Shown here: positions 14,836-51,504 of the stretch, one piece after another
How positions within the stretch are numbered: the stretch's first letter is position 1
Layout: each line of letters starts with the position of its first letter
Origin: an uncultured bacterium
GTDB lineage: Bacteria; Hydrothermota; UBA3073; NMUJ01; CBEVQO01
Length of the DNA stretch: 64,000 nucleotides
Direction of reading: 5' to 3'
Assembly: GCA_965552055.1 (NCBI GenBank)
Contig: CBEVQO010000001.1
Coordinates: 192,001 to 256,000, forward strand
Notes under the pieces: generated by a model
Database searches by the model: none
Seen by the model: the letters and a program-made list of their open reading frames with translations, nothing else
What the model was told of the DNA's origin: nothing
Position numbers and translations under genes: made by a program

Positions 14836-14844
14836 ATCACCTCC

Positions 14845-17800
14845 TTACTTTATAACCGCTATCTTCCAGATTGATTCTGCACTTTCCTCCTCTGTCTTCG
14901 CTATCACTTTACAGATGTAAACTCCATTGAGCACGATGTCGCCAGCAAAGTTCCTGCCATCCCATGTAATATCCAGCCTGCCACTTAATACGGGTATTTC
15001 CTCGCTCCATATGAGATTGCCTGCAAGTGTATAAATCTTAACTTTCACCTCTGCTGGCTTATTCACCTTCACCGCTATTTTGGCTGTATTTCTCAATGGA
15101 TTGAATGGATTTGGATAACTCGCAACTTCAACATTCAAAGGCTCATCCACTGTGAATATAGAAATCGGCATTTTTACAGCTCCAAATTCAGGTAATTTGA
15201 AGCGCTGAACCCTGTCATTGTTTCTGTCTGCTACATAAATCTCTTTTACAACATCACCTTCATAGCAAAGCGAAATGCCACAGGGTTTGTTGAATCGCCC
15301 CGGTTCTTTTCCAAATTCTCCAAATATCAGTAACCTGTTTCCAAATCTATCGCACATAACAATTCTATCCGCATTCCTTTCGCAAATCCATATATTCTTA
15401 TGTCTTGAGATTTCAACATCTGCGGGATAATCAAAATTCTCTATCTCCATAACCCTGAACGCCGTATCAAATAAGTTCACATAGTATTTAACGACTTTGC
15501 CACTGCAGACAAGGCATGTGAAGATGTAAGGGCTGTCAACTCCAATACCTTCACATTTATGTGCAGGAATCGTAAATACGATATTTGCAGAGTCGTCAAG
15601 GAATGTTAGCCTATCCCAATTTCTTTCTGCCACAACTATGTAATCACCATAAAAGTTTATTCCTTTTGGATGATTTAGTCCCGTTGCTGAATAAACTTCA
15701 TTCCCCGATAAATCAAATCCAAGCACAGTAAGATGCGTATGACCCCACCACAATGTCGTATAAATTATTTCTCCATTGAACCTTACAGCATTTGGATGAT
15801 GCAAACCTGTTATTTCTCCAACAAAATTACCCCAGTAATCAAAGTATGCAATCCTCTTATTGTTTCTGTCTGCTACATAAATCCATGAGTTTCCATCTGG
15901 TAAAATGTGCACACCTTCAGGTTTATGCAGACCTGTTATTGCGAGGTCAAATTGTGGCTCACAGCGAAAGATTATCCTTCGAAATTCAGAAGTGTTTAAC
16001 ACAACATCCTGTGCTGTTAATCTCAAAACATAAATTCCGTCGGATAAATCTTTTGCATTGAACCAGCCAAGGATTGTATCTATCATCTGCTTTTTGCCTT
16101 CGGAGATGGTTATCCAGTCAGATGGTGAAATTCCTTCTCCATACTCTAATTTCCACCATCCAAAGTGAACATCCCTTACCCTTCCATAAACAGGCACATT
16201 CTGATTTACCATGCAGGATTCTGTCGGTGAGATTATGAAGCATTCAGGTGGAGTGTCATCAAGTATAAATTCATGAGATTTAACATCTTCTTTATTTTCC
16301 ACATTATCAATTGCATAATGGGAGATTGTGTGCATGCCATCCTGTCCTTGCAAGCCCCAATCTTCCAGAGTGAATACAAAGTGAGTATCAGGTATTTCCT
16401 GCCATGGCATGGAATCCACTCTATAAACTATTTTCTGCACGCCCGATGCTACTCCTGCGGATAATGGGTCTTCTGCTCTCAATGTGAAATCTGTATGCGA
16501 TGTGATAATCGTTGAATCTCCGTAACTATAAGAAGGTGTGCCAGTTATCAGTTCAGAAACAGGTTTTGTATCATCGACTGCGAGTAATTTTTCTTTTGTG
16601 GGTTCACGATTGCCAAGCTTATCAACTCCATAATAGTAAAGTGTATGCAAGCCTTCTCCCCATTCGGCGAGTGTAAATGTGGTCTCTGCAACATAAATCC
16701 TCTTTTGAGAAGCATCACACCACCAGTAGCCAGTATCTACTCCACATCCTTCGTCTGTTATTGTGAGAGTTAAATCCGTATGTGATGTTATATACATTGG
16801 ATTATCACTGTATTTGGGTTCGCCGATTGTCAGTTGGCTTACAGGCGGTGTGTTATCGAGGTAAACCGTGATTATTTTGTGTCCTTCTTCATTTCCAATG
16901 TTATCAATTGCCCAGTATTCAATTGTGTATTCTCCATCTTCTCCTGTTATTGTGAATGCCACGCTATCGCCTGAAATTACATTTTCCAAACCATTTATCA
17001 TGTAGTGAATTTCTTTTACTCCGCTGGATGCATAACTTATCACTGGGTCTTCCGCTTTAAGTGTTATTTTAGTGCTTGATGTTAGCCACAGTTTACCTTC
17101 CTCATCCTGATATTTTGGTTCACCGAATGTGATTTGTGTTTGTGGTGGTGTGTTATCGACATAAATCGTTTCACATTTCTGTGGCTCTGTGTTTCCGAGA
17201 TTATCCACAGCATAGTATTTTACATTGTAAACTCCATCTGATGGTAGGGTGAATTCTCCTCCCTCTACCCAGTACCCTGCAAAGTTGTAGTATCTGCTTT
17301 TTACTCCGCAACCTTCATCTATTGAGAAAATCATAATTAGTGAATTAGAAGTCACAAATCTTTTACCATCAATCAAAATAGTAGGTGGCTCGAAAGTAAG
17401 ATGTGAAGAGGGTGGTGTATTGTCGAGGTAAACAATGGTATCAATGGTTAAACTTCTATGTCCGAGATTGTCGAAAGTCCAACAAATTATTGAATACTTG
17501 CCGTCTTTCCTTGCAATAATGTTATAAACAATGCTATCAGAAAATGTTGAATCAGCATCAATCTTTGTCGTATTATAATAAACTTCGTAATTAATTTCTT
17601 TTACACCGCTTGCAATTCCATTTATAATGAGGTCTTCCGCTTTCATGATAATATCTGTTTGAGAAGTAATCCACATTTTATCGCTTACATATTTTGGCAA
17701 GGTTATTGTGATTTGTGCAACAGGAGAAGTATTGTCAATCCTTACAATTTGTGATTTTATATCTTCTCTGTTTTTCGCTCTATCAACGCTATTGTAATAA

Positions 17801-20800
17801 ATTGTGTATTCCCCATCAGGATATTGTAATTTGAAGGAATAAGGCAACAAATCAGTGGTAAGTGCATGAGTTATGCCATTTATCTTGTAGTATGTTGTAT
17901 CAACTCCGCTTTTATCATCCCATGCGGAAATTGTTATTTGAGTCGTAGAGTCTATATAAGGTGGTGAGCCGTAATTTGGTGTGCCAATGGATATCTCCGT
18001 AACAGGTGGAACAGTATCTTCTATTATTTCAATTGAGAATGCAATTGTTTGATAATTTTCTGCATAATCCCTGGCTGTAATGTGGCACATGTAAATCCCT
18101 GCTGGTAAAACCTTTCCAGAAAAATCTTTACCATCCCAGATTTCGGTATAGCTGCCTTCTTTTAGATCAAAATAAGATTTATGATAAACACCTGCTCCTA
18201 TCGGGTTCTCAATCATAATTTCTACAATTTTACATGATTCGGATAAAGTGAAATGGATATAGGTTTCTTCTCCTGTTGAAGGCATAAAAGTAGTGGGTTC
18301 TGCATAAGCAGTTATTTGAGGAGGCACCCTATCCACCAGCCAGTAGCCTGTCACTTCATTTGACTTATTGCCGAGAGAATCAATTAAGAATGATATGAAT
18401 CGATAGTAACCATCGGGTAACAACCTTCCAGCATCATCGTATTTTTCCCACACGAAACAAATTGTGTCAGCCTTAAATACCTTTTTCTTAGTAAATTTAT
18501 CTGTTACCTGATAATAAAGCATTCCTGCAGTAAAAGAGAATATTCGTAATGTCTCCTCATAAGTTTTGTTCACAATTAACAGAGTTTTTTCTGCTTCTAA
18601 TTTAGGCACTGATAATTTCCTCCATCCTACAGGTGCATTCTTTATTGCTGGTTCTGTTGGCTCTGGTGGTTCCGGTGGCTCCTCTGGTGGCTCTTCACGA
18701 GGTTCTTGCCAGCCTGCTATTGCAGAGATTGATGAAGATGAAGTCATTATTTTCTTCTTTAAGTTCTCAAAAGCTTCTAATTTTGTAACAAAGATTACTA
18801 TTTCTCCTGGCTTCACTTTTATCAAATGACTGAATTTACCTTCTGCATCGGTAGCCACTCGATAAATACCGATTAATTCGCTTTCGTCATTTATATCAAA
18901 TTTTCGTGCAGATAATGTTAAAGTAGAAGTGGGATTATAATTAGCAACAACTTCTCTTGCAACTTCATATATGTTCCTAAGAGGATTTGTAACTGCGATA
19001 ATAAGAGAATCCAATGGTTTAGCGTGTCCTTTAATTTTTGCTGTGGTATCGTTTATAGTAATGAAAGAGTCAATAACAGGCTTCACTGTTTCCGTTTCTG
19101 TGTAATATAAAGGTGCAAATACTGGGAAATCACCACCTGGAAAGGAGTCAAGCGCTGCTTCTATTGTAAGAATTCCATCCGCTTCAGGCTGACAGGGAAA
19201 TGTTGTTAAATCAACTATATCTCCAGAAGGTGAGATACCATATAATTTCAACTTTGAAGTATCTATGTTGCATTTTTCAATATCCCGGGGCGTATAATGG
19301 AATTTTAAAGTTGGTCTTTTTGTAGTATCGAACTTAGCACCTGCTGGCTGCATCAATAACACAGGTCCATAGTTGCCCGTTATTATGGGAGTGCCATACC
19401 CTAACCCAGCATCTTCTATTAGAACAGGTGAAATTTTAGCAATCGTATCAGTTGGGAACGCTCCTTCTTTAAAAATTATCTCTGCTCTACAATAAGGAGA
19501 GTGCGCCTCCGATACATTATCATGTGAGATAAAATCACCTACATAAATGTCTTTGTAATAAACTTTCACAGGAGTTTTCGAACTTTTGCTTTCAAACAAT
19601 TTAAGCATTAATCTGTATTTTCCATAAGCGTGTATTGAGTTCCAGTAGCAAAGTGTTTGGAAGCCTCCAACAGGTGTTTTCCTTTTTGTCAACTGATAGA
19701 GATTCTTTCCGTCATATGCCCATAATTCGTAATAATGACCTTCAGGGTCTCCCTGAATTTCTATAAATGCTTTTGGCAAACTATCTAAATTAAGAGTATG
19801 AACAGGAATAAAGGAATCTAAGGCACTGTAACCAAATAAAGAATCGTGATAGCTGATAACAAGTGTATCGAGGTCATAATTATTTTGGTCGTTAATGTAT
19901 TTTAGATTAATATTCCAGTTTGTGATTTTGAGGTAAGGGTTTGAGTTATTATCCCAAAAAGTAGCGGTATAATCGTTCTGCTGGGCAACAACCTCTGCCG
20001 TTGCATTAAATTCAATCGGATTTATTACTTTACATGTTGATATTATGCCACTCTTAGAAAGGAAATTAACAGAAGTGGTTAGTTTAACACCTCCTGTAAT
20101 TAAAGAAACTGCCATCCAATTGACATATGCGCCAATTTCTTTTGCGACGATTTTATCGCCTACTTTTAATTTGCAGATACATTTAGTGACATCATAATCT
20201 GGAGGTACATTGACATTCCAACTAGTAAATCCAAATGTGGATTTTTCCGTTAAATAAAGTTCCTTTTGAGTAGAAAAGGTATCCGTTACATACAAAGTAC
20301 AAAGTCTTGGACGACCATCAATACCGGGATCTTCTTCCTCTATAATCATTTTTTGAGCAACAAAACTTGCTTCAAATGTAACTTTCCTTTTAAGAGAGTT
20401 AGAGTACCAGTCTATGAAACCAACCTGTTCACCTTTCCCATAAGGCTTAAATTCGTCTTTTGTAAATATGATGGGCATAGAGAATATTTTTCCCTGTTTA
20501 AGGTTTGTATCCATAGTTGTTTGCCATGCTAAAGTTTCAGCCACTACTCGTATAGAGTCCTCCCAAGGTGGAATTAATCTCACATTTTCTCCTGCTATTA
20601 AATGTGGTGTTTGGTATCCACCAATTTGCACTACTTTTGGATTGACAGGAAATAGCTCATCGTAAGATATAATGTCCGTATAATAAACGGTATCAGAATG
20701 TAATTTTATTAATAAGGTATCAAAAATTGACTTGAGGTCATTCGAAGGCACACTAATAATTTTGCCACTTTGAATGCGTGAATAAAGAGTACTATAAGTA

Positions 20801-23800
20801 AAAAACTTAAAAGTCACTCCTCCAATAGATATACTGTCGTAACATCCACCGCTGGAAATTTTTGAAGAATCTTTAAATTCGACTTTGTAGCTTATATTTT
20901 GTATTTCTACACTATCCAAAGTATCCCCAAAACTAATCGTCCAAATTAGAGTGTCATTAAAAATTCCTATTCTATTAACGAAAGATTTTGTTGAATAAAG
21001 TGTCGCGTCTAGATAAATGGCATAGACAGTTCGATAACTTCCGGTGCCCAAAAACCAAGTAGTAACATCATCACTGCCTTTAGCTTTAACTAAGTACCAG
21101 TTACCGTTACTGCAATGTTGCCAATACGCATAATCTCTTTCCAATAAAATACTAATACTGCTAGGTCCGCCTGAATAGGGATTATTCACGACAGCCCATG
21201 TTGGGTCGCCAGCCCAATAAAAGTCAGGAGTGGCGAATATCGGAAAATCTTCATAATCTTCCACCTTCGCCTGTATTGTGACGCTAACCAAAGGTTTACC
21301 TCCTTTACCGATTGCGGTATCAACCAATGTATAAGGTTGAGGCGGGCAATACTCCCCCTCTGCACTTGCTTCAAATTTAAATTCTGCAAGTTCTTTATAA
21401 ACAGTATCTCCCAAAACTCCTACTTTATATCTATCTGGTATCACAATATTTCCATAAACTACAGAAAATGCGCCTGTATCTGCTTTAAATGTTTCACTTC
21501 TCGTGGTATCATAATCTTTCCCATCCAGTGAAGTCGCCTTTATCACAAAATAATATTCTCCTGTATCTGCTCCCGTGCCCTCCCATGTGTAATATGTTTG
21601 CCAGTTGCCCGCTGCAAAAAGATTTGTAACCAGAGTTTTTAAATATGCATCTTCATGATATAGATCAATTTGAACATTCGCATCTCTGTTTACTTTGAAA
21701 CTCAAAGTCACAAGTCTCTGCACGCTATCTTCATGGAAAGGATAAAAGACATCGGGACTAACATTGACATCCGTGATTTCAAATTTTGTCTTTACATTCA
21801 CAAATGCACTATCAATTGCTATGCCTTTGTAATCCTCTGCAATCGCCATCAATAGCACTTTATACCTGTCACTGCCTACATCTTCGCCTTCATTATTCTT
21901 TCCAAACCATAACACTTCTTTTATAGTATCTCCAAGGTCTATGACACACGGATTCTGGCACAATAAAGTATCTTTTCCAAGCCACAATCTATCTGTAAGT
22001 ACATCATTTTCATAAAAGGCAAATTCAAGTCTTCTGCTTTCTGACTTAAATGACAAATATTTTGTCCCGGTGTCCGCCATATAAATCATTCCAATTAATG
22101 AATCTTCGTAATTTTGGATAAAGAAATCAGTTGGATAAACTGTAAAGCCAGGTTCACTTTGCGCTCTTATGATGCACTTAGCAACCGTTACTCCATTTTC
22201 GTTCCTGAAAGCAATCTTCCATGTATCTTCTATCATATAAAGATAAAAGCCATGATGCAGTATGGCAGGCACACCTTTATATGGATAAATCACTCCGAGA
22301 TCTATATCATTAATATTTTTGCCATTCTCATCAAGGATATTTATTCTAATATGGGAAACTTTACCCTGAACCAGATAATTGATTTTCAATGTATCTCTTT
22401 CTCCCTGAATATTTAATGTGTCATCTTCTCCTGTTAATTGTGTTAAAAGTGTAACCTTAGGCAAAACACCTGTAAACGGCTTAACATAAACTGTCTCAAT
22501 ATCACAAAGATAATTTCCATTTTTCTCATAACTTATTAGTTTCAATTCACAGGTGTTATCTGCAAGTCCAGATACATCCCAGTATGCCAACATGTCAGGA
22601 GTTTCTACCTGTTTTATTCCAATATTTGCAGAATCACCTCGAAGCTCCGGTAATACTTCAATTCCTGTTTTTTGCCATATTCCTCCAGTTGTTCTCCACC
22701 ATATTTCAAATCTGTCAAATCCAGATGTGTTTCGCATATCAGGGTCAGATGCCCTCCCGAATATTGCTACTCTTACAGCCTCTACTGTATCTTTTGGATA
22801 AACGATTTCTGCACCAAATGTGCGTTTCAAAACCTGATCTTGCTTCCAGCTTACATTGCCCCATTTGTCCTTTAAAACAAGTTTAACATTATGGCAGCCG
22901 TTTGGTAAAGGAGTTAAATCTATTAATGCCTTGCCAGAAACTACGGAGCTACCAGGCTTAACTACAGTATCAAGTTGCAACAAAGTATCCACATAAATTT
23001 TAAGCGTACAAATACCTCTATTTTGTGCGATGTCTTTTCTTTCGGATACTTTGAAATAAACTTCCGCTGTGTCATTTATCGGAATAAGTGGCAATACATA
23101 AAGGTCAATTATTTCTGGTGCTGTTCTATCCACTCGCAATGTCTCTCCACCGAGGGGTTCTGGTACAATCGCTTCATTACCTGCTTTATCCCGTGCTATT
23201 ATCTCTGCTTTATAAAGACCATCGGGTAAATATTCGCCAAACCAATTTTTACCCCAATATATGATGTTTGTATCTTCTTTTTCACCTGTGTAATATCTCT
23301 TCTCGGTATAACCACTGACATAATCTGTAAAAGTAACTTCCATCTCTGTCCATTCATCTGTTAAGTATTTCATTATAATTGCAGTATCTTTTGATGTGAA
23401 AATAAGTGGCGTAAATGTTTGTGTAATCTCTATTTGCGGAGGCTTTGTATCAACTATGAAATAACCAGTATCACTCGAAACATTCCCTGCCTTATCCTTT
23501 ACAAATACTTTTACGATGTATTTGCCACCAGAAAGAGTATCCACATACCCGTATCTTCTTATACTTTCAAAATAGCAGAATTTAATAGTGTCGTGCACAA
23601 CTGTATCTCTCAATGAGTCATAAACCTCGAACCATACTGATTTTGGTACAAATAACATGTTTTCGAGGTTATCGGATGGTTTAAATATTATATTTAATGC
23701 AGGATGTGCTTTCCATGACCATAAAGTGGAATCGGGCTGATAAACTTCTACAACAGGAGGTGTGGTATCCCTATAGAAAAACCAATCATATTTTTCAGAA

Positions 23801-26757
23801 TTTTTGACACGCACTTTGTCAACGAGTTTTGCAAGAATTATGTATCTGCCTTCAGGGAGAGGTAAGTAAATTGTGTCAATTATAAAATCAGTTGCCAGAG
23901 GTTCATAGTCTCCATCGGTTTCTATAGTTTCGATTTTCATTTTATAAAAAGGAAAACTAACTTCGATCATATTTGTATCTTTACCGCATATAAAGATGGT
24001 ATCTGTATCCGGGGTTATAACCCAGAGAGAGCAACATTTCACACCTGACCTGTCAACTCCTTTAAATTTGATTTTGACGGTATCTTTGTTTGTAGCGAAA
24101 TTAGGCTTAGGTTCTATAATCACAATTTCAGGAGGTTCGAAATCCGGAATTCCAGGTGAAATTGACGCTATTCCTTCACCCCAATGCCTTCTTCGCTCAC
24201 ATATTTTCTTAAAACCACTATTGGTTTTTACTCCAAAATACGTCCACTGATCGTTTTCTTTTATCCTAATTTCTCCATCTTCTTCAGGTTTAAATACATT
24301 GGATTTCAATAAATTCGCAATAGAATCTCGTACTTCTCGCGCTTCCAGATCGTAAGGGGACAATCCTCCCACTCCATCACCACAAATGCCTATCAAAACG
24401 GTATCACCTACGGATAATGATTTTAGGTAATTGTATAAACGGTCGGCTTCTATTTTTCCTGAATCGGGGAATTGAGGATTATAATAAGTTCTAAATCTTT
24501 CGGTATCTACAGGTATTCCATTTCTTATGACGACTACCCAGATGCCAGGTTTATCTTCAAAGTTTATCACATTTCCAGCTGCAAGGAACTTTATGTAGTT
24601 TCCATCTTTGCTTCCTGCTGATTCTATTGCATTTAAATACCCTCGACCTGCAGCTAAAATCGGTCTTTTAACTTGATATTCTCTCGGGAAGCGCCAAGAT
24701 TGACCTATTGCGTGATCGGGAACAAAGCTATTATAAGTATTATATAAAGTATCCATATGGATTCTGCATCCTTTGATCCCTTTTATTTTTACGCTTTCTA
24801 TACCTTTAACCAAAAAAGGTTCAAATGAAGTGGTGTAAAATTTAGAACCATTGCAGTCTAACTGTAAATGAAAACCATAAAAATTGGTATCCAATGGGAA
24901 AGGTATGGTATAACTTTTTCTACCTTTTTCAATTAGGCTTTTTAAACCCATTTCTTTTAAATTACAGGTTATTGTTGTCTCCTTAACTATGGGTTTATTA
25001 AAATAATTTAAATACGGATCATCTCCTATTATTTTAATTTTTAAAGTTAACTTTTTATCAAAATTATAGGTAGGAGATAGCAGAAATACTTTCACACTAC
25101 AGGGAGCTCCTTGAAAGAAGAATGAATCAGGAAAAAACCACTTTACTTGTTGCACTAATAATTCATAAGGTTGAGAGGAAAAATCTCCGCATTCGCTCAA
25201 ACTATGTATAACGGCGTTCGTCCTCGTAATATTTAATGTCTTGTCCCATAATTCTTTCATTGTATTACAAAAATCTAAGTTTCCGTCCCCGTTAAGGAAA
25301 TTAAATATTTTTTTATTACAAAGAAGAAGCATTTTTTTAAGTACTTCAAAATTCCAGTGCGTGAAAGGTTCCTTTGACTCCCAAAATTCCGATGCAAATG
25401 TATAGTTTTTTAACAATCTTTCTTTCATTATGCAGTATTCTATATTTGTTCTTAACTCATAAGGCATTTGAGCTTCTAAGGGAGGGGCTTCTGCTGCTTC
25501 ATCGTACAAAGGTTCTGTGAAATTAAGCCATTCATTGGATAACAACAAATTTGCATATACGATAGCATCCATATCACTTTTAATTGGAAGCGAACATACT
25601 TTTTTTATGTGTTTAATGGTGAAATATATCCACCTTGTTGTTATTTCTGCTTCCATTTTATTTTCTTCCCAGTTCGCATAAACTCTGCAATCAGCAGGCA
25701 ATAAATAAAACCATACAGGTATTACCGCTAATAAAAAGCGTGAACCGCCATCTCTTCTCTTTGCAAAATAAGAATAAATCATCCTATATATCAACGCTCT
25801 TAAATATTTTTTATTTGATGTCAATATATCTCCGATTTTACAATTTGCAATTACTATTTTAGCAAGAGTTTTTATTAAACCTTCTTTCCAATTATTTGGT
25901 TTGCTCTTTTCTATTTCTTTTCCTATGTTTTCTTTAACCATAACTTCAAACAATTCTGAAAAATCATCTAAACTTTTATATGCTCGCGAATATTTAACAA
26001 ATAAAAAGAATTCTTCATAGCTCTTTCTAATCTCATCAGCAGGTATACTTGAGTCTATTGAGTGAATAAAATTTGCTAAATCGAAATGCACTATCAAAGG
26101 AGGGACTTCAAATAATAAACCTCCGTCGTTCCGCACAATCATTCTAAAAATATGGGCTGCATCTAAAATAATCCTTGCGGATGGTAATAGATACAGTGGC
26201 GGTAAAGGAGCGAATTTATCAAGGAATGCCTCTACGAACCATTCTAATTGTTTAAACCTTTCTTTTTCAATGTGAGGAAACCCGATATCGCCTACCTTTA
26301 AGTATTTACACAAAAATGGCAAAAGAATATTATCAATGTGAAAATCCATAAGGAAATGATTTAAGTATCCCAAAGCAAAGCAAACTTTTTCTATTGAAGG
26401 ATCATTTTTATAAGTTATAAAATCTTCATAAGCCTTTTCAAGTAATTGAACAGCGAATTCTGGGCTATGTAAAGATATCAGCGAAGGGTTCACTGAACGA
26501 ACATCTGGTGCGATGCATCCTGCTATAAAGGCGTTTCTGAATCTTAAATATCGCATATATTTATGAGTATCGCTAACACTGGGAATCACAATAGGAGGTT
26601 TTTCTCCTAAATCTACTCCGAACTGTCCCTCTATTTGATTCTTTAAACTATCCCATATTACAAAACCCATCCTTCCATGAGTTATTGGACCATATCCTAA
26701 AAGTGTATTTGCAAGTATTATTAAAATACCCACAGCTATTACTTTATCCCCCTTCAT
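14845..26757 (-). CDS. Giant secreted multidomain protein (B2): Zn-dependent phospholipase C-like N-terminus, ILEI/GG lectin-like domain, Ig/FlgD and OmpL47-like repeats, NHL propeller, T9SS-like C-terminal domain
   Basis: Signal peptide; YGPITH, GCIAPD, GYLNHFLMD; SAGSKDGN..GIWVVVI; many DxTPP and WDGK..G..L..G.Y; YVADRNN repeats; YPNPFNP...WKIAVIK. Confidence 0.85.
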   Translation of the reverse strand: MKGDKVIAVGILIILANTLLGYGPITHGRMGFVIWDSLKNQIEGQFGVDLGEKPPIVIPSVSDTHKYMRYLRFRNAFIAGCIAPDVRSVNPSLISLHSPEFAVQLLEKAYEDFITYKNDPSIEKVCFALGYLNHFLMDFHIDNILLPFLCKYLKVGDIGFPHIEKERFKQLEWFVEAFLDKFAPLPPLYLLPSARIILDAAHIFRMIVRNDGGLLFEVPPLIVHFDLANFIHSIDSSIPADEIRKSYEEFFLFVKYSRAYKSLDDFSELFEVMVKENIGKEIEKSKPNNWKEGLIKTLAKIVIANCKIGDILTSNKKYLRALIYRMIYSYFAKRRDGGSRFLLAVIPVWFYLLPADCRVYANWEENKMEAEITTRWIYFTIKHIKKVCSLPIKSDMDAIVYANLLLSNEWLNFTEPLYDEAAEAPPLEAQMPYELRTNIEYCIMKERLLKNYTFASEFWESKEPFTHWNFEVLKKMLLLCNKKIFNFLNGDGNLDFCNTMKELWDKTLNITRTNAVIHSLSECGDFSSQPYELLVQQVKWFFPDSFFFQGAPCSVKVFLLSPTYNFDKKLTLKIKIIGDDPYLNYFNKPIVKETTITCNLKEMGLKSLIEKGRKSYTIPFPLDTNFYGFHLQLDCNGSKFYTTSFEPFLVKGIESVKIKGIKGCRIHMDTLYNTYNSFVPDHAIGQSWRFPREYQVKRPILAAGRGYLNAIESAGSKDGNYIKFLAAGNVINFEDKPGIWVVVIRNGIPVDTERFRTYYNPQFPDSGKIEADRLYNYLKSLSVGDTVLIGICGDGVGGLSPYDLEAREVRDSIANLLKSNVFKPEEDGEIRIKENDQWTYFGVKTNSGFKKICERRRHWGEGIASISPGIPDFEPPEIVIIEPKPNFATNKDTVKIKFKGVDRSGVKCCSLWVITPDTDTIFICGKDTNMIEVSFPFYKMKIETIETDGDYEPLATDFIIDTIYLPLPEGRYIILAKLVDKVRVKNSEKYDWFFYRDTTPPVVEVYQPDSTLWSWKAHPALNIIFKPSDNLENMLFVPKSVWFEVYDSLRDTVVHDTIKFCYFESIRRYGYVDTLSGGKYIVKVFVKDKAGNVSSDTGYFIVDTKPPQIEITQTFTPLIFTSKDTAIIMKYLTDEWTEMEVTFTDYVSGYTEKRYYTGEKEDTNIIYWGKNWFGEYLPDGLYKAEIIARDKAGNEAIVPEPLGGETLRVDRTAPEIIDLYVLPLIPINDTAEVYFKVSERKDIAQNRGICTLKIYVDTLLQLDTVVKPGSSVVSGKALIDLTPLPNGCHNVKLVLKDKWGNVSWKQDQVLKRTFGAEIVYPKDTVEAVRVAIFGRASDPDMRNTSGFDRFEIWWRTTGGIWQKTGIEVLPELRGDSANIGIKQVETPDMLAYWDVSGLADNTCELKLISYEKNGNYLCDIETVYVKPFTGVLPKVTLLTQLTGEDDTLNIQGERDTLKINYLVQGKVSHIRINILDENGKNINDIDLGVIYPYKGVPAILHHGFYLYMIEDTWKIAFRNENGVTVAKCIIRAQSEPGFTVYPTDFFIQNYEDSLIGMIYMADTGTKYLSFKSESRRLEFAFYENDVLTDRLWLGKDTLLCQNPCVIDLGDTIKEVLWFGKNNEGEDVGSDRYKVLLMAIAEDYKGIAIDSAFVNVKTKFEITDVNVSPDVFYPFHEDSVQRLVTLSFKVNRDANVQIDLYHEDAYLKTLVTNLFAAGNWQTYYTWEGTGADTGEYYFVIKATSLDGKDYDTTRSETFKADTGAFSVVYGNIVIPDRYKVGVLGDTVYKELAEFKFEASAEGEYCPPQPYTLVDTAIGKGGKPLVSVTIQAKVEDYEDFPIFATPDFYWAGDPTWAVVNNPYSGGPSSISILLERDYAYWQHCSNGNWYLVKAKGSDDVTTWFLGTGSYRTVYAIYLDATLYSTKSFVNRIGIFNDTLIWTISFGDTLDSVEIQNISYKVEFKDSSKISSGGCYDSISIGGVTFKFFTYSTLYSRIQSGKIISVPSNDLKSIFDTLLIKLHSDTVYYTDIISYDELFPVNPKVVQIGGYQTPHLIAGENVRLIPPWEDSIRVVAETLAWQTTMDTNLKQGKIFSMPIIFTKDEFKPYGKGEQVGFIDWYSNSLKRKVTFEASFVAQKMIIEEEDPGIDGRPRLCTLYVTDTFSTQKELYLTEKSTFGFTSWNVNVPPDYDVTKCICKLKVGDKIVAKEIGAYVNWMAVSLITGGVKLTTSVNFLSKSGIISTCKVINPIEFNATAEVVAQQNDYTATFWDNNSNPYLKITNWNINLKYINDQNNYDLDTLVISYHDSLFGYSALDSFIPVHTLNLDSLPKAFIEIQGDPEGHYYELWAYDGKNLYQLTKRKTPVGGFQTLCYWNSIHAYGKYRLMLKLFESKSSKTPVKVYYKDIYVGDFISHDNVSEAHSPYCRAEIIFKEGAFPTDTIAKISPVLIEDAGLGYGTPIITGNYGPVLLMQPAGAKFDTTKRPTLKFHYTPRDIEKCNIDTSKLKLYGISPSGDIVDLTTFPCQPEADGILTIEAALDSFPGGDFPVFAPLYYTETETVKPVIDSFITINDTTAKIKGHAKPLDSLIIAVTNPLRNIYEVAREVVANYNPTSTLTLSARKFDINDESELIGIYRVATDAEGKFSHLIKVKPGEIVIFVTKLEAFENLKKKIMTSSSSISAIAGWQEPREEPPEEPPEPPEPTEPAIKNAPVGWRKLSVPKLEAEKTLLIVNKTYEETLRIFSFTAGMLYYQVTDKFTKKKVFKADTICFVWEKYDDAGRLLPDGYYRFISFLIDSLGNKSNEVTGYWLVDRVPPQITAYAEPTTFMPSTGEETYIHFTLSESCKIVEIMIENPIGAGVYHKSYFDLKEGSYTEIWDGKDFSGKVLPAGIYMCHITARDYAENYQTIAFSIEIIEDTVPPVTEISIGTPNYGSPPYIDSTTQITISAWDDKSGVDTTYYKINGITHALTTDLLPYSFKLQYPDGEYTIYYNSVDRAKNREDIKSQIVRIDNTSPVAQITITLPKYVSDKMWITSQTDIIMKAEDLIINGIASGVKEINYEVYYNTTKIDADSTFSDSIVYNIIARKDGKYSIICWTFDNLGHRSLTIDTIVYLDNTPPSSHLTFEPPTILIDGKRFVTSNSLIMIFSIDEGCGVKSRYYNFAGYWVEGGEFTLPSDGVYNVKYYAVDNLGNTEPQKCETIYVDNTPPQTQITFGEPKYQDEEGKLWLTSSTKITLKAEDPVISYASSGVKEIHYMINGLENVISGDSVAFTITGEDGEYTIEYWAIDNIGNEEGHKIITVYLDNTPPVSQLTIGEPKYSDNPMYITSHTDLTLTITDEGCGVDTGYWWCDASQKRIYVAETTFTLAEWGEGLHTLYYYGVDKLGNREPTKEKLLAVDDTKPVSELITGTPSYSYGDSTIITSHTDFTLRAEDPLSAGVASGVQKIVYRVDSMPWQEIPDTHFVFTLEDWGLQGQDGMHTISHYAIDNVENKEDVKSHEFILDDTPPECFIISPTESCMVNQNVPVYGRVRDVHFGWWKLEYGEGISPSDWITISEGKKQMIDTILGWFNAKDLSDGIYVLRLTAQDVVLNTSEFRRIIFRCEPQFDLAITGLHKPEGVHILPDGNSWIYVADRNNKRIAYFDYWGNFVGEITGLHHPNAVRFNGEIIYTTLWWGHTHLTVLGFDLSGNEVYSATGLNHPKGINFYGDYIVVAERNWDRLTFLDDSANIVFTIPAHKCEGIGVDSPYIFTCLVCSGKVVKYYVNLFDTAFRVMEIENFDYPADVEISRHKNIWICERNADRIVMCDRFGNRLLIFGEFGKEPGRFNKPCGISLCYEGDVVKEIYVADRNNDRVQRFKLPEFGAVKMPISIFTVDEPLNVEVASYPNPFNPLRNTAKIAVKVNKPAEVKVKIYTLAGNLIWSEEIPVLSGRLDITWDGRNFAGDIVLNGVYICKVIAKTEEESAESIWKIAVIK
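23219..24107. repeat. Direct repeat R (about 889 bp), copy inside the giant gene
   Basis: Reads identical by eye to 28231-29119 (offset 5012); flanks similar with scattered substitutions. Confidence 0.9.
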
Positions 26758-26758
26758 T

Positions 26759-28012
26759 TTAACCTCCTATTTTGCATATTTTTTTCTTAAAAAATTTTTC
26801 TCCTCTTTTTACTACCAAAAAATATATTCCTTTAGATAATCCCGAAAAGTCTATTTGAAAATTCTGCCTGCCTGTGCCTATCAGGCGAAGTATTCTCTTT
26901 ATCCTCAATCTCCCCATTACATCATAAACCCTTACATCAACATCTTCGTCTCCAATAGCTATTAATTGCAGATTTATAAAACCTCTGCATGGATTGGGAT
27001 AGACAACAAAATGCTCCCTGCACGCCTGAACATCCCAAACTATCCTGCCAAATATCCTGCTACTTTGCCAATCAGATGAAATTCTGCGTGTATAAACGAT
27101 CAAAAATTGACCTTGAGAACCGCTTATTTGATATCCATAACGGATAGGAATTTCTATTTCGGCTATTCTTGTGCCTGTTTCGTCTATTATTACGGCATGT
27201 CCTGACCAGATTATCATATAATTATTTCCGTTAAATGCGCAGGGAGGCGATAAGCCTATCTCGTCAGTTAATAAAATTTTAGTAATAAAATTACCCTCAT
27301 TTGAATAAATTTTAGCTACTATTGACTGTGCAAGAGTGGCGTAAGATACACAAAAAGTGTTATTTCCTTTTACACTATACTCCCCTTTCATCGTCCCTTC
27401 GGAAATGCTCGGATCATCAGCTATCGCAAATGACTTTATTTTTTCCAATTGTTCGTTTAACTCAATTCCGTAAAGATTTGACTCATAATATCCTTCGATC
27501 CCATAAACTATAAAATACCTTTCATTGACACATACAATGGCAGGCCCACACAAAATGTACCCTGTCCTCACAAGCACTTTTGGCTCTCCGAGGACTTTGC
27601 CTTCAGGCGATACCTTCACTACTCTCAACTCATCACCTGACCCCCTCTTGCAAATCCAGCAAACAACAAAATTTTCACCATCGAAAGTACAAGCTGCTGG
27701 ACCTATTGTGGTATCTATTATAGTTTCATTTGATAATTTTTTACCTTCGGATGTAAACCATAACCCCATTGTTTTATGTTTTTTTGCAATGACGACCAAG
27801 AATAAAGAATCCCCATAACAAACTGCATAAAGTCCTCCTGTATCAACAGAAATCGGTTCCATATCTAATAATACGCCTTGAGGCGTTACTCTTGCTCCTT
27901 TTATGTAAGCTCCATTTTCTGTCCACAATACAAAATAAATTCCATCTCCATATGCTACTTTTGGACCAGTTTGAAGATTTTCACTCAACCCAATTCTAAA
28001 CTCGTCCCCCAC
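26759..28012 (-). CDS. T9SS-like CTD-containing beta-repeat protein (partner A2)
   Basis: P.VAY.G..YFVLW-type repeats; C-terminal VYPNP...YDVMGR...LSKGIYFL...KKICK. Confidence 0.8.
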   Translation of the reverse strand: MGDEFRIGLSENLQTGPKVAYGDGIYFVLWTENGAYIKGARVTPQGVLLDMEPISVDTGGLYAVCYGDSLFLVVIAKKHKTMGLWFTSEGKKLSNETIIDTTIGPAACTFDGENFVVCWICKRGSGDELRVVKVSPEGKVLGEPKVLVRTGYILCGPAIVCVNERYFIVYGIEGYYESNLYGIELNEQLEKIKSFAIADDPSISEGTMKGEYSVKGNNTFCVSYATLAQSIVAKIYSNEGNFITKILLTDEIGLSPPCAFNGNNYMIIWSGHAVIIDETGTRIAEIEIPIRYGYQISGSQGQFLIVYTRRISSDWQSSRIFGRIVWDVQACREHFVVYPNPCRGFINLQLIAIGDEDVDVRVYDVMGRLRIKRILRLIGTGRQNFQIDFSGLSKGIYFLVVKRGEKFFKKKICKIGG

Positions 28013-28103
28013 TATTATTTTTGCTGTATCAGTGAAGAAAATTAGTGCTAAAACTACCCCATCGTAAATTTTAATCCAATTATCGGAGTGTCAAGAAAAA
28101 ATT
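27981..28103. repeat. 123-bp direct repeat P (promoter plus 5' end of partner gene)
   Basis: Identical to 33134-33256; contains minus-strand TTGACA-N15-TAAAAT. Confidence 0.92.
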
Positions 28104-31100
28104 CAAAACATAAAGGTCAACTATTTCTGGTGCTGTTCTATCCACTCGCAATGTCTCTCCACCAAGGGGCTCTGGTACAATCGCTTCGTTACCTGCTTTA
28201 TCTCTTGCTATTATCTTTGCTTTATAAAGGCCATCGGGTAAATATTCGCCAAACCAATTTTTACCCCAATATATGATGTTTGTATCTTCTTTTTCACCTG
28301 TGTAATATCTCTTCTCGGTATAACCACTGACATAATCTGTAAAAGTAACTTCCATCTCTGTCCATTCATCTGTTAAGTATTTCATTATAATTGCAGTATC
28401 TTTTGATGTGAAAATAAGTGGCGTAAATGTTTGTGTAATCTCTATTTGCGGAGGCTTTGTATCAACTATGAAATAACCAGTATCACTCGAAACATTCCCT
28501 GCCTTATCCTTTACAAATACTTTTACGATGTATTTGCCACCAGAAAGAGTATCCACATACCCGTATCTTCTTATACTTTCAAAATAGCAGAATTTAATAG
28601 TGTCGTGCACAACTGTATCTCTCAATGAGTCATAAACCTCGAACCATACTGATTTTGGTACAAATAACATGTTTTCGAGGTTATCGGATGGTTTAAATAT
28701 TATATTTAATGCAGGATGTGCTTTCCATGACCATAAAGTGGAATCGGGCTGATAAACTTCTACAACAGGAGGTGTGGTATCCCTATAGAAAAACCAATCA
28801 TATTTTTCAGAATTTTTGACACGCACTTTGTCAACGAGTTTTGCAAGAATTATGTATCTGCCTTCAGGGAGAGGTAAGTAAATTGTGTCAATTATAAAAT
28901 CAGTTGCCAGAGGTTCATAGTCTCCATCGGTTTCTATAGTTTCGATTTTCATTTTATAAAAAGGAAAACTAACTTCGATCATATTTGTATCTTTACCGCA
29001 TATAAAGATGGTATCTGTATCCGGGGTTATAACCCAGAGAGAGCAACATTTCACACCTGACCTGTCAACTCCTTTAAATTTGATTTTGACGGTATCTTTG
29101 TTTGTAGCGAAATTAGGCTCTGGTTCTATAATCACGATTTCAGGTGGCTCATAGTCAGGAGGAGTGGTGGGCAGAGCAATCGCAACACCTTCTCCCCAGT
29201 GCCTTCTCTGCTCATAAATCTTCTTAAAACCACTATTAGTCCTTACACCTAAATATGACCATGAATCGTTAAGCTTAATTCGTATCTCTCCCTCCGCTAT
29301 GGGCATTAGACAATCACTACTTAGCAAATTACCTAATTTTTTTCGTATATTTCTAGCATCTGGGTCCTCTGATTTTAATCCTCCCACTCCATCACCACAA
29401 ATACCTATCAAAACGGTATCACCTGTAGATAATGATTTTAGATAATTGTATAAACATTTGGCTTCTTCTATTGGATCAATCCCTCCGGGCGGATTTTTAT
29501 AAGTGTGAAATCTTTCGGTATCTACTGGGGTTCCATTTCTTATCACGACTACCCAGATGCCTGGCTTATCTTCAAAGTTTATCACATTTCCAGCTGCAAG
29601 GAACTTTATGTAGTTTCCATCTTTGCTTCCTGCTGACTCTATTGCGTGGGGATACGCTGCTGAGCCTAATGGAAGTTTACGCCCTCTATTTAAATCAATA
29701 TTTCTAAAAGAATGCACTACATCATCATAAGTGGTATAAAGTGTATCCATATGTTCTCTTGTATAATATCTGCCTCTGAAAAATACTCTCTCTATCGCTT
29801 TTGTGCGCACTGGCTCTAAATCCGTCGTAAAGAAAAGTTTATCACTATTCCAGCATACCGCTATATGATAGCCATAATATTGAGTATCAATTTCAAAAGA
29901 TACAGGTATTTTTATTCTCTTTCCTTGATTGTTTTCAATTAAACTTTTCATTGAAATTGAACTTAAATTCATTGCAATAGAAGTGTCTTTTACGACACTA
30001 TCTTCTCTCCATGAAGAATAAGGTTTGTCTCCCATTATTTTTACTTTCAAAGTTCCTTCTTCATCCGGCAATGTCCAGTAAGGAGAATAAACTTCAAGAG
30101 TGCAGATATTACTTTCATAGAATGTAGGAATAGTTAAAACTTTGTGATCAATGCGAAATGAACCCTTTAAAATTTTTAACATGGATTTTTTGATTGCAAT
30201 ATCGTAGATTTTTTGATTTTCAGACCAATAATTCTCATTTAGCCATTTATTAGAAATATTCCCAGTCTCACAATAATTGATAGCATCAGATAAGCACCGT
30301 AATATAAATTCTTTTTGAGTATTTGCATTTATGGGCAGAGTGTTTTCCCAGAAGCCTTTAAACAAATTGGAATATGGATTAAGTAAGTCGTTTCCTCCAA
30401 ATTTGTGAAATTCTGGATTATTTTTAAAATATTTTTCAAAGTTTGTCCTGGGTTTAAGGAAACTCAGGATAACTATATTTTCAAAAACTCCCAACGGTAT
30501 TTCTACGGTATCTACTTCGAAATAAGTCACTGTTTCATAGCCAAACGCCGGTATAATCGGCTCGATCACTTCTTTTGTTTTAGTAGTACAGACTATTCCC
30601 GGAAGTGTATAATCTGCCCAAATTTTGCAAGAATAATGAATGCTTCCCAAGAGTCTTAATGCGGTTCCTACCCCCGCAAAAGCCAAGCCTATAAAAGAGA
30701 GAAGTGCATTTTGAGATACCACACCTATGAAAGTAAGCCAGTAACCTACCTCCATAAGTATAATACCCCATTCCTCAGCCGGAAAATCAACGCTTATTGT
30801 CAATATATGTTTCCGAGGGTTATCCCCAAAATAATATTCCAATACTCCTTCACTATATCTTTTAATCACTCCTGCAGTGAAAGAAAGTAAAAATCGCTTT
30901 AAATCCTCGTCAAGATTATGAAAATATAATTCACAATATTCTTTTTCTTTAAAATGATTATATGCTCCCAATATTTGTTTTAGCGTTGGTGCTAATTTCA
31001 TTACTACCATTGGAACGAAGAAATAATTTCTCGTTATCATTAATAGAGTAATATCGGGGAAAAGGGAAACAAATGTTTCGTTAAAACCCCAATTTGTAAT

Positions 31101-31823
31101 GTCTCCAGCTGTAATTTTCTCCTTATCAATTGGAGTAACTTCGCGTAATCTATCAAATATATCCACCACAATTGGGGCAACGCATAATCTCTTACTTACT
31201 TCTTGTTTTTCCTCCTCATCGTCCTCTATAATGTTAATCCCTATATTGTCAGCTAGAAATTTTCCTAAAATCTCTGCTGTATCGAATGTTATTTGCATAT
31301 CAGATGCAACTTCAGTATTTGGATAAGCTTTGCAATAATAAAAATCTGTAATCCATCCGATGTTATCAAGCATTTTGTTGGACAAAGCTGATATAGCAGG
31401 GAGTGAAGGATTCCCTACACACGCATACTCACACAGCCAAGGTCTTATCAAAATATCTAAATACCTGTCTTGTAAAATATGAGTTAAATATCCACAGGAA
31501 AAACATAGTTTCATTAAATTTTCCTGAGAAGGAGAATTTTCGCAAGCATCCCATGCAGATTTAATTAATGCCAATGCTCTAGGTCTTTCATGTAATGTAT
31601 TATGAACTTCTTCATCGTCATGATATAAATCAGGAGCAATGCAACCTAATAAGAAACTCTGTTTATAGACATCATTATTTAATGCCACATTTAATTTCTT
31701 TTCAAGTGTATCTTTAAAGCTTTCCCAAATCATTTTTCCATGCCCAATATGCGTTACGAAGCCGTATCCAAATAAAGTTTTATGAAAGAACAAACCCATT
31801 ATCAAAAAGAAAAACCTTTTCAT
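28080..31823 (-). CDS. Truncated paralog of the giant protein (B1) with a divergent Zn-phospholipase-C-like N-terminus; lacks C-terminal sorting domain
   Basis: YGFVTH, GCIAPD, GYLTHILQD; ILEI-like domain; about 340 aa nearly identical to B2, then ends inside repeat P. Confidence 0.85.
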   Translation of the reverse strand: MKRFFFLIMGLFFHKTLFGYGFVTHIGHGKMIWESFKDTLEKKLNVALNNDVYKQSFLLGCIAPDLYHDDEEVHNTLHERPRALALIKSAWDACENSPSQENLMKLCFSCGYLTHILQDRYLDILIRPWLCEYACVGNPSLPAISALSNKMLDNIGWITDFYYCKAYPNTEVASDMQITFDTAEILGKFLADNIGINIIEDDEEEKQEVSKRLCVAPIVVDIFDRLREVTPIDKEKITAGDITNWGFNETFVSLFPDITLLMITRNYFFVPMVVMKLAPTLKQILGAYNHFKEKEYCELYFHNLDEDLKRFLLSFTAGVIKRYSEGVLEYYFGDNPRKHILTISVDFPAEEWGIILMEVGYWLTFIGVVSQNALLSFIGLAFAGVGTALRLLGSIHYSCKIWADYTLPGIVCTTKTKEVIEPIIPAFGYETVTYFEVDTVEIPLGVFENIVILSFLKPRTNFEKYFKNNPEFHKFGGNDLLNPYSNLFKGFWENTLPINANTQKEFILRCLSDAINYCETGNISNKWLNENYWSENQKIYDIAIKKSMLKILKGSFRIDHKVLTIPTFYESNICTLEVYSPYWTLPDEEGTLKVKIMGDKPYSSWREDSVVKDTSIAMNLSSISMKSLIENNQGKRIKIPVSFEIDTQYYGYHIAVCWNSDKLFFTTDLEPVRTKAIERVFFRGRYYTREHMDTLYTTYDDVVHSFRNIDLNRGRKLPLGSAAYPHAIESAGSKDGNYIKFLAAGNVINFEDKPGIWVVVIRNGTPVDTERFHTYKNPPGGIDPIEEAKCLYNYLKSLSTGDTVLIGICGDGVGGLKSEDPDARNIRKKLGNLLSSDCLMPIAEGEIRIKLNDSWSYLGVRTNSGFKKIYEQRRHWGEGVAIALPTTPPDYEPPEIVIIEPEPNFATNKDTVKIKFKGVDRSGVKCCSLWVITPDTDTIFICGKDTNMIEVSFPFYKMKIETIETDGDYEPLATDFIIDTIYLPLPEGRYIILAKLVDKVRVKNSEKYDWFFYRDTTPPVVEVYQPDSTLWSWKAHPALNIIFKPSDNLENMLFVPKSVWFEVYDSLRDTVVHDTIKFCYFESIRRYGYVDTLSGGKYIVKVFVKDKAGNVSSDTGYFIVDTKPPQIEITQTFTPLIFTSKDTAIIMKYLTDEWTEMEVTFTDYVSGYTEKRYYTGEKEDTNIIYWGKNWFGEYLPDGLYKAKIIARDKAGNEAIVPEPLGGETLRVDRTAPEIVDLYVLNFFLTLR
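28231..29119. repeat. Direct repeat R, copy inside the truncated gene
   Basis: Identical by eye to 23219-24107; shadow ORFs 23419-23616 and 28431-28628 have identical translations. Confidence 0.9.
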
Positions 31824-31824
31824 T

Positions 31825-33165
31825 TTACCCTCCTATTTTACATATCTTTTTCTTAAAGAGTTTCTCTCCTCTTTTTACTATCAAAAAATATATTCCCTCC
31901 GATAATCCGGAGAAATTTATTCGAAAATTCTGCCTCCCTGTGCCTACCAGCTGAAATATCTTCTTCATTCTCAGTCTCCCCATTACATCATAAAGTTTTA
32001 CTTCAACTTCCTCGTCTCCAACTGCTATTAATTGCAGATTTATAAAATCTCTACATGGATTGGGATAAGCAACAAAATGCTCCCTACACGCCTCAACATC
32101 CCAAACTATCCTACCAAATATTCTATCACTTTGCCAATTTGTGGTATCGATTTCCTTTGCATAAACTACAAGAAACTGACCCGATGAAGCACATATTTCT
32201 TCTCCACTTATATCAAGATAACTTACCGGAACAATGTCCATTCGATATTTTATTTCTCCACTGTTGCCAATCAAAACACCTTTTACTCCCATTGGATAAT
32301 TATCGCTATCTAAGAAATATCCCATCACAACCAAAAAGTTGCGTCCATCATACGCAATTTGTGGACCACCAATATAACCTTCTACTTTTCCTAATAGTGA
32401 ATTTTGTCCCAAAGACCCTAAATAGGTGCCCCAAACACACTCTCTTGCACAATATGCAATATAACTAATGTTATCCCCACAAGCAATAGCTTGTCCTCCA
32501 GAAGTGCCTTCCAAAATATTGGGATCCGTGGCTACATTAAACTCTTTTAAAACCTGCAAATCTCTATTTAATTTCAAACAGTAAATATCTTCATCATAAT
32601 ACTCATCTAACGCGAATAAAACTAAGATGTTATTGCCATCAAATGCTACTTCTGGAGGCCAGCAAATCACATACCAATGTCTTTTTAACACCTTTGGTTC
32701 TCCGAGGACTTTGCCTTCGGGCGATACCTTCACCACTCTTAACTCATCCCCTGACTCCGTCTTACAAATCCAGCACACAACAAAATTTTCACCATCAAAG
32801 ACACAAGATGCGTCACCAAAAGTAGTATCTATCTTGATTCTTTCTGCATTTAAATCTTTCAAAGAAGTGTCGAATATAGCACAATATAAGCCTGTATCTG
32901 GTAAGTAGCCACTCCAAATAACTAAATAAACATCTTTACCGTAAGCCACCGCAGGATGGCATCCTCCGGTACCAAAATACTTAATTAAAGTAATAGGAGT
33001 ATCTACAAGTGTCCCCATAGTTGTGACATGTACTCCGTTAATCAAATAATATCGCGTATTTTCTTCTTTTTCACGCCAAATTACAAAATATTTTTCTCCA
33101 TTATAAACAACTTGAGGGTACTTCTGTGTTCTATCACTCAACCCAATTCTAAACTCGTCCCCCAC
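31825..33165 (-). CDS. T9SS-like CTD-containing beta-repeat protein (partner A1), paralog of 26759-28012
   Basis: Shared blocks GDEFRIGLS, FDGENFVVCWICK, SGDELRVVKVSPEGKVLGEPKVL and near-identical CTD. Confidence 0.8.
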   Translation of the reverse strand: MGDEFRIGLSDRTQKYPQVVYNGEKYFVIWREKEENTRYYLINGVHVTTMGTLVDTPITLIKYFGTGGCHPAVAYGKDVYLVIWSGYLPDTGLYCAIFDTSLKDLNAERIKIDTTFGDASCVFDGENFVVCWICKTESGDELRVVKVSPEGKVLGEPKVLKRHWYVICWPPEVAFDGNNILVLFALDEYYDEDIYCLKLNRDLQVLKEFNVATDPNILEGTSGGQAIACGDNISYIAYCARECVWGTYLGSLGQNSLLGKVEGYIGGPQIAYDGRNFLVVMGYFLDSDNYPMGVKGVLIGNSGEIKYRMDIVPVSYLDISGEEICASSGQFLVVYAKEIDTTNWQSDRIFGRIVWDVEACREHFVAYPNPCRDFINLQLIAVGDEEVEVKLYDVMGRLRMKKIFQLVGTGRQNFRINFSGLSEGIYFLIVKRGEKLFKKKICKIGG

Positions 33166-33256
33166 TATTATTTTTGCTGTATCAGTGAAGAAAATTAGTG
33201 CTAAAACTACCCCATCGTAAATTTTAATCCAATTATCGGAGTGTCAAGAAAAAATT
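33134..33256. repeat. 123-bp direct repeat P, upstream copy
   Basis: Identical to 27981-28103. Confidence 0.92.
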
Positions 33257-37423: not shown

Positions 37424-37457
37424 AGGTATATTGAAATTTGATGCCAAAACTACCCCA

Positions 37458-37781
37458 TCATAAACCTTTATCTAAAAACTCAAAACAGATTTGGGTTATG
37501 GAAGTTTCATCTGCTATATCTCCGTAAAATTTTTTCATCGCCCTTTTTAGTGCTTTTTTTGATTTATAGCCATCTTCGCGTATCTCTTTCTCACCCACTT
37601 CTTTCCACTTCAAATATCTTATTTTTGTTATTCTTGCGAGTCCTATATTTTCGTCGCCTGCACGAATCATAACAACTTCACCTTCTTTGAAATCTTTTCT
37701 TATACCAAGTCGCAATGTTGCACGCTTCTCTCCTTTTTTCAATTTATCTTTATATTTCGCATCAAAATTAAGACACTTCAT
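37458..37781 (-). CDS. ASCH domain protein
   Basis: GEKRATLR (GxKxxTxR), EDGY, FYG; starts immediately after tmcA stop. Confidence 0.88.
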   Translation of the reverse strand: MKCLNFDAKYKDKLKKGEKRATLRLGIRKDFKEGEVVMIRAGDENIGLARITKIRYLKWKEVGEKEIREDGYKSKKALKRAMKKFYGDIADETSITQICFEFLDKGL

Positions 37782-51494: not shown

Positions 51495-51504
51495 TAAGAC
51501 CCCC

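Follow-up and report, generated by a model that had tools for sequence, protein, structure and literature searches.

A predicted inverted polymorphic toxin array, with variable N-terminal enzymatic heads on a type IX-sorted stalk, in an uncultured Hydrothermota bacterium

A stretch of 64,000 nucleotides from an uncultured bacterium of the Hydrothermota (assembly GCA_965552055.1, contig CBEVQO010000001.1, positions 192,001 to 256,000 of the forward strand), hereafter called the window, carries a tandem array of gene cassettes in front of the gene of a 3970-residue protein. Coordinates without a contig name are positions within this window, and all features of the array lie on its minus strand. 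Our data show that the N-terminal enzymatic domain, or head, varies on one family of stalk (three PF00882 alleles, M23, alpha/beta-hydrolase, Amidase_6 and S8), and that the family of the partner protein changes with that of the head. Judged from its sequence, the array is probably a polymorphic toxin system of inverted layout: the N-terminal head would attack the envelope, the immunity protein would be encoded upstream, the type IX tail would be fixed, and the arrays would grow by displacement. We give about an even chance to the more specific proposal of a previously undescribed contact-dependent killing system, in which type IX-exported stalks of 3,000-7,600 residues, with their own PorV-like and SprA-related genes, would bear exchangeable N-terminal warheads (lipase, phospholipase-like, M23 or amidase), together with immunity from beta-propeller genes upstream and with upstream arrays of displaced immunity-plus-stub cassettes growing at a shared promoter-like block.

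In minus-strand order the locus consists of gene T (790 aa, 33255-35627), the 5' block P1 (33134-33256), the partner A1 (446 aa, 31825-33165), the stub B1 (1247 aa, 28080-31823), the block P2 (27981-28103), the partner A2 (417 aa, 26759-28012), the giant C (3970 aa, 14845-26757) and gene V (296 aa, 13945-14835). P1 begins in the stop codon of T and holds a TTGACA box, a leader and the first A1 codons. As a preliminary description of the locus had reported, P is an exact repeat of 123 bp (offset 5153), and a second exact repeat of 889 bp, R, is shared by B1 (R1, 28231-29119) and C (R2, 23219-24107; offset 5012). The homology around R is wider, spanning about 1.5 kb (28104-29645 against 23092-24630, 91% identity) with the ILEI domain included. 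The earlier view of P as a promoter is an interpretation: a TTGACA/TAAAAT pair is present at a 15-nt spacing, but it was not listed by a sigma-70 scan, and P is best called promoter-like. B1 comprises a signal-like N-terminus, the PF00882 head N1, an immunoglobulin (Ig)-like domain, ILEI and the first stalk repeats; it has no sorting tail, and it exits R, enters P2 and ends there (VLNFFLTLR and stop), as first described.

The sequences that meet at the R-P junction (28103-28104) share at most about 2 bases, without useful microhomology, R2 continuing as CCACTT and P beginning with AATTTT. Part of the stretch occurs in 11 sequencing runs from 8 studies, and contigs of five of them (X1-X4 and X6, one of which may be the window's own source) were placed on the window. 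The junction is bridged by contigs of X3 (27981-28163) and X6 (27910-28162), belonging to two studies, which extend 59 bases or more to either side of it, and it is therefore not an assembly seam. Beyond it, the X3 contig departs from R into another sequence, which indicates that the junction exists in more than one allele. An assembly artefact at the array is thus unlikely, and the possibility raised at the outset, that two strain haplotypes had been stitched together, was not borne out, since the junction was found in other samples.

The assignment of both heads to the Zn-dependent phospholipase C / S1-P1 nuclease / Het-C superfamily (PF00882), first made from motifs, is confirmed by profile scores above the cut-off (34.7 and 27.2 bits for N1 and N2 against 26.8), together with the conserved TH, PD, H and H-x3-D. 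Five metal-ligand positions are invariant across five heads; the metal-binding cores lie at 31224-31766 (N1) and 26158-26697 (N2), and in both proteins an Ig-like domain and then ILEI follow. The nearest Atlas clusters for N2 are PF00882 (score 0.95), and a third head of the genome, N3, scores 23.2 bits, below the same cut-off. Het-C is treated in PMC3482391. The strong divergence between N1 and N2 noted earlier holds only for the first ~550 residues (21% identity), although homology further on is wider than R alone. Over the same region the three heads are 21-26% identical, and the propeller parts of their partners 38-45%. An AlphaFold2 model of the N2 head, built from five sequences, is of low confidence (mean predicted local distance difference test, pLDDT, 44.5), and its comparison by Foldseek and VIA-align gave a match only at the Ig-like domain (aa 529-677), which says nothing on the enzyme fold. 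A word-index search with the head alignment among proteins of 1401-4000 aa matched 0 of 3587 candidates, which is weak evidence, and a hydrophobicity scan of nine heads gave four segments above 1.7, in three of the nine, with no consistent pore-forming region. In the related genome G006, a 1660-aa protein (L023:3130-8112, G006:C127) combines a PF00882 head and ILEI, in the manner of N1-N3, with a short body that has the tail but no R; it represents a possible source pool of heads, and its upstream gene lies beyond the end of the contig.

The place of A1 and A2 in the cassettes is as first described, but they are not spacers, since they encode beta-propellers with a type IX sorting tail. The predicted fold of A2 (mean pLDDT 79) consists of a beta-propeller (aa 1-334) and the tail, with a best structural match of Z 33.7 (root-mean-square deviation 2.6, 316 aligned), and the tail reaches 45.4 bits with TIGR04183; the propeller of A1 is assigned by homology to A2, with which it shares two DNA blocks of 85-87% identity. 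In the arrays each head moves together with its partner gene, and A1 and A2 are likely immunity proteins or chaperones for N1 and N2, respectively. PMC13133936, consulted as a possible precedent for immunity to lipases by TolB-like proteins, uses TolB only as a control. Near the A start an out-of-frame ATG is followed by a stop two codons on (27981-28103, 33134-33256 and L035:7446-7530).

Further cassettes were found in the window's genome (G000, with its contigs C1, C2 and C6) and in the vent population. A third cassette, P-A3-N3, lies at G000:C1:389642-393530 and ends after ILEI. The metagenome contig L032 is 99.8% identical to this orphan A3-N3 (G000:C1:389667-393533) over 3867 bp, and runs in frame from N3 into its own R allele (97% identity, 87 bp shorter). 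In a contig of X1 the N3 tail is followed by a long R allele with the linker variants of L032, and X3 and X6 share these variants; the X1, X3 and X6 records are possibly not independent of L032. The further N-terminal alleles on the same stalk that the preliminary description had proposed to look for are therefore present, in L032 and in run X1. Two loose ends in X3 correspond to no partner start and no head start among the three of each in G000, which suggests still further alleles. In run X2, loose ends at 28070 and 28104 suggest that the P-type 5' block can also follow the end of another T-like gene and precede a gene that has a GGAGGT site, which would be another cassette type in the population.

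A second locus of the same genome (G000:C2:39171-59140) repeats this organization with another enzyme. Its T (G000:C2:56850-59140) is a 92% DNA copy of that of the window, and V and the stalk end (13963-18352 in the window, G000:C2:39189-43893 in the second locus) are 95-98% identical at the DNA level, and the interior encodes three propeller-like partners (382, 381 and 276 aa), each ahead of an M23-type head. Two of these heads are stubs (248 and 256 aa, Pfam M23 above cut-off) that run into the next 5' block as B1 does, and the third, of 676 aa, has no Pfam hit and is 34% identical to the two stubs; the DNA block common to the stubs and the full head measures only 101 bp (83%). A pattern derived from the 5' block has six matches in the genome, which are the starts of the six cassettes, and all three stub junctions lie at most about 12 bases from a TTGACA box. 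The M23-headed giant (L033/L034, G000:C2:40071-52208) occupies a 4045-codon frame with one TAA at codon 677, which separates the 676-aa head from a 3323-aa giant. Since a library protein, P0019, has an unbroken open reading frame (ORF) of 4053 aa with an M23-like head (weak M23 hit, E 0.003) on the stalk, this architecture exists as one ORF. A hydrolase head of genome G071 (L077:14030-14241) has a stop directly after the signal, and it may be common for heads to be switched off. The beginning of contig C2 cuts through a seventh partner-M23 pair (G000:C2:1-1643), whose stalk, if it has one, lies outside the assembly. Looser relatives of P precede two unrelated genes (37433-37475 in the window and C6:16698-16757). 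The first of these segments is the leader of a 375-aa gene (36320-37447), which resembles part of P, and the gene is flanked by a 50-bp repeat (88%; 35885-35933 and 37476-37525).

Across the phylum, the stalk profile matches 19 of 272 genomes (E<=1e-10). Wide flanks were retrieved for 21 of the 24 stalk places outside G000; three short matches outside the system (G256, G056:C190 and G108) and six loci cut by contig ends (G147, G052, G249, G267, G046:C97 and G047:C151) were dropped. In all 12 loci where both the head and the upstream gene are visible, an alpha/beta-hydrolase head stands behind a propeller-type partner. The nucleophile elbow is kept in 14 of the 15 heads or stubs examined, and a crude lipobox pattern is matched by 11 of 13 partners; a LolA-like gene often precedes the partner, and homologues of V and T follow in five fetched loci. 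An extra upstream partner with a head stub (180 aa or 114 aa) occurs in two of the 12, G006 and G047 (L021 and L080). Together with those of the C2 locus, these stubs measure 114-256 aa and lack stalk homology, their partner genes being whole, and in four arrays whole partners stand behind broken heads. When the two loci of genome G004 are compared, the stalk is 78% identical, the head 45% and the partner 45%. In another form of the locus, apparently rearranged (L073:10620-16350, G249:C6), a prematurely ending stalk ORF precedes a LolA-like gene and the genes of an LVIVD tail protein and a partner-like lipoprotein, after which comes T.

Head diversity was also surveyed in the library, where 40 hits were hand-picked for long matches from the 150 best, and 35 with more than 150 residues before the stalk were kept. 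Nineteen of them fall in the hydrolase cluster, one is B1, and single heads are M23-like (P0019), Amidase_6 (P0038) and S8 (P0153), the others being partial or unassigned. A phospholipase C-like head suggested by eye in P0073 was rejected, having neither hhalign nor Pfam support, and the head of P0035 is unassigned. One named stalk-bearing record is labelled Candidatus Cloacimonadota. An invariant N-terminus in all relatives, which would have spoken against the preliminary description, was not observed, as relatives carry differing heads.

The carrier itself is conserved. After ILEI, C continues with repeats of the Ig/FlgD/OmpL47 type, then with an NHL propeller, and closes with a type A sorting domain (14848-15117; TIGR04183 23.6 bits, cut-off 23), so that the proposal of a type IX-type tail on a fixed stalk, with the variable enzyme at the N-terminus, is upheld. 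T is a predicted outer-membrane protein with one short SprA-like segment (aa 154-231; TIGR04189 21 bits, cut-off 200), and V is PorV/PorQ-like (NF033709 80.4 bits, cut-off 90); homologues of T flank the giant gene in relatives. The genome also encodes PorU, above its cut-off, and a 1768-aa SprA-like frame, below the cut-off of its own family. We infer that T and V are a dedicated outer-membrane partner and shuttle for type IX export.

Taken together, these data are in agreement with the following model. The giant would be exported by Sec and the type IX pathway, with V as the shuttle and T as the outer-membrane partner, and the stalk would present the head to an adjacent cell, the upstream beta-propeller gene providing an immunity protein able to inhibit its own head. 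Because the sorting tail must stay C-terminal, variation would be forced to the N-terminus. The heads of lipase, phospholipase-like, M23 and amidase type would all find their targets in lipid or peptidoglycan, and entry into the cytoplasm would be unnecessary. Incoming DNA (5' block, partner, head and stalk) would recombine through stalk homology on one side and join illegitimately at its 5' block on the other. After such a displacement the newest cassette would be full length, and each older one upstream would be reduced to a stub behind an intact partner with its own 5' block.

Several known systems share parts of this organization. The likeness to Rhs and contact-dependent inhibition (CDI) arrays seen by the preliminary description is supported as a mirror image, the fixed stalk bearing its variable enzyme at the N-terminus and the cassettes lying upstream. 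As described in PMC3482391 and PMC3967940, both have a long conserved carrier, a variable enzymatic tip, a linked partner and standalone cassettes homologous to the main gene, whereas here the polarity is reversed, with an N-terminal variable domain and the partner and orphans upstream, and the orphans keep their own 5' block and signal-like N-terminus. A conserved carrier with an enzymatic domain that varies across strains and species is found, as is an adjacent, cognate and rapidly diverging partner gene, here upstream, in all 12 loci of relatives and in the seven pairs of G000. The definition of the classical polymorphic toxins rests on a toxin at the C-terminus (PMC3482391), and the C-terminus is here a conserved sorting domain; the array would therefore work like these toxins without being a member of the class. 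Polarity alone is not new, since the X-T4SS (type IV secretion system) effectors are already N-terminal with upstream lipoprotein immunity: the Xanthomonadales X-Tfe/X-Tfi pairs, as described in the accessible sections of PMC6536674, combine variable N-terminal envelope-targeting enzymes, a conserved C-terminal secretion signal and immunity proteins usually encoded upstream and often lipoproteins. The hydrolase loci share with them the N-terminal variable enzyme and the upstream exported partner, the export signal of A1-A3 not being clear. The differences lie in the type IX sorting domain (a TIGR04183 match) in place of XVIPCD, in a carrier that is an Ig stalk of the length given above, and in tandem upstream stub arrays, which do not appear in those sections of PMC6536674.

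[quoted passage not shown] Type IX secretion has been proposed as an export route for antibacterial polymorphic toxins, namely TANFOR proteins (PMC7073777) and Apibacter Rhs (PMC8125069), and is listed among delivery hallmarks (PMC12419801); PMC9424270 had no bearing on this point. In TANFOR and Apibacter Rhs the toxins are C-terminal and the sorting domain is on neighbouring genes, whereas the giant here bears the sorting domain itself and has its own PorV-like and SprA-related neighbours. In our searches of the literature on polymorphic toxins, N-terminal toxins and type IX secretion, which covered mostly open papers without their supplements, nothing matched a giant tail-bearing stalk with PorV-like and SprA-related flanks and upstream stub arrays, although examples may be present in the architecture tables of PMC3482391 and PMC12419801.

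A number of observations weigh against the toxin-immunity interpretation. The heads appear by eye to lack the later His ligands of B. cereus phospholipase C and of S1/P1, a difference from the superfamily to which they are assigned, and a PDB sequence search with the head profile gave nothing significant, so that no solved relative was found by sequence. Related PF00882 heads are also carried, in G006 and G015, by ordinary proteins that bear the tail but have no R stalk, and in G015 the gene upstream is not A-like. The A propeller is apparently not a dedicated immunity family, the module being present in 143 of the 272 phylum genomes, often in frames of ~900 aa. The sorting tail would direct A1-A3 outward, yet they show no clear signal peptide or ribosome-binding site; in all three copies a signal-like GVVLALIFF lies in frame 5' of the A GTG and the sole nearby ATG is out of frame. 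Partners co-vary with heads (rho 0.74) more than with the stalk (rho 0.52), a weak result from 45 non-independent (kin) pairs, and G047 holds counter-examples, with partners 80% alike on heads 51% alike and heads 59% alike with partners 30% alike. T and V score below their family cut-offs, and in the head-stalk interval no processing protease was found. The S8 head and several unassigned heads need not be toxins, and the direction of displacement is deduced, not dated.

Some of these points fit the main rival explanation, which we consider unlikely, although it is the best placed of the alternatives. According to it, the giant is a surface foraging or predation enzyme on a stalk, whose heads digest the lipids, walls and proteins of dead or prey cells; the propeller would be a chaperone, a subunit for substrate binding or a co-exported partner, and head diversity would broaden the range of substrates or help to evade phage. 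The sorting tail of A and its derivation from a common surface module, the related PF00882 heads on ordinary tail-bearing proteins, the existence of an S8 protease head and the adhesin-like Ig/OmpL47-type stalk are in agreement with it. It leaves unexplained the whole partners behind truncated heads in four arrays, the own 5' block of each partner, and the lipobox-bearing partners of the hydrolase heads, which are as divergent as the heads.

An in-place switch, the second alternative, seems improbable to us as the function of the array. Chromosomal crossover in R or P, with the upstream cassettes as donors, would here change the displayed head, as in phase or antigenic variation. R is identical over all 889 bp and the distal 127 bp hold nine differences, a contrast that points to recent exchange in R, and orphan fusion is known in Salmonella rhs (PMC3967940). 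The two crossovers put forward in the preliminary description can be formed in simulation, the one at R deleting 5012 bp and leaving an open, in-frame ORF of 3988 aa, and the one at P deleting 5153 bp, but neither N1-R-C molecules nor excised circles of 5012 or 5153 bp were observed in the short-read contigs, which cannot span the 889-bp repeat. A joint in X2 that 'goes back 5012' was considered as a swap and rejected, being the native R2-N2 join. The deletion would moreover be irreversible and would remove A2. Standalone cassettes do exist, and an N3-R fusion occurs in other samples, but B1 alone keeps the 889-bp identity, the stubs of C2 having only their 101-bp block and those of G006 and G047 measuring 114-180 aa. 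Short stubs without stalk homology, together with whole partners, are better accounted for by displacement in which the partner is retained than by a switch that draws on donor cassettes. An in-place swap would be feasible only where the stub has kept R, as in the window, where a single R crossover could restore N1 to the stalk with the loss of A2-N2.

Selectively neutral insertions that duplicate P as a long target site, with gene conversion maintaining the likeness of the copies, are very unlikely: P is indeed an exact flanking direct repeat, but this explanation accounts for P and not for R, and leaves unexplained why partner-plus-stub arrangements recur in three genomes with three families of enzyme. 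Insertion with target duplication could nevertheless be how cassettes integrate, as distinct from what they do. Stitching of two strain haplotypes by the assembler is very unlikely, for although the vent population is polymorphic at the locus, no contig crosses the whole array and the R1-N1 linkage is not bridged in one piece, the R-P junction offers no overlap usable by an assembler and is bridged by X3 and X6, and C2 and two other genomes show the same partner-stub arrangement.

If the inverted toxin-immunity interpretation is right, such a class would be systematically missed, because the discovery of polymorphic toxins relies on variable C-termini and downstream immunity genes. It would also provide a direct case of type IX secretion in interbacterial attack, outside the Bacteroidota, a use that the papers cited above only hypothesise. 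The three cognate and non-cognate phospholipase-like pairs would be small, testable enzyme-inhibitor pairs, and the heads would be a further source of thermophile-derived lipases and peptidoglycan hydrolases.

Elsewhere in the window, a type III-B CRISPR-Cas locus (44235-55727) encodes Cas10/Cmr2, Cmr3, RAMPs, a Csm6-like HEPN protein and Cas6; about 35 repeats form its array, at 52.7-54.9 kb. An AAA_21 ATPase gene in a region of low GC content that follows ispG (10209-11832) is accompanied by a 173-aa gene that has no Pfam hit, and the two may form a defence or toxin-antitoxin pair.

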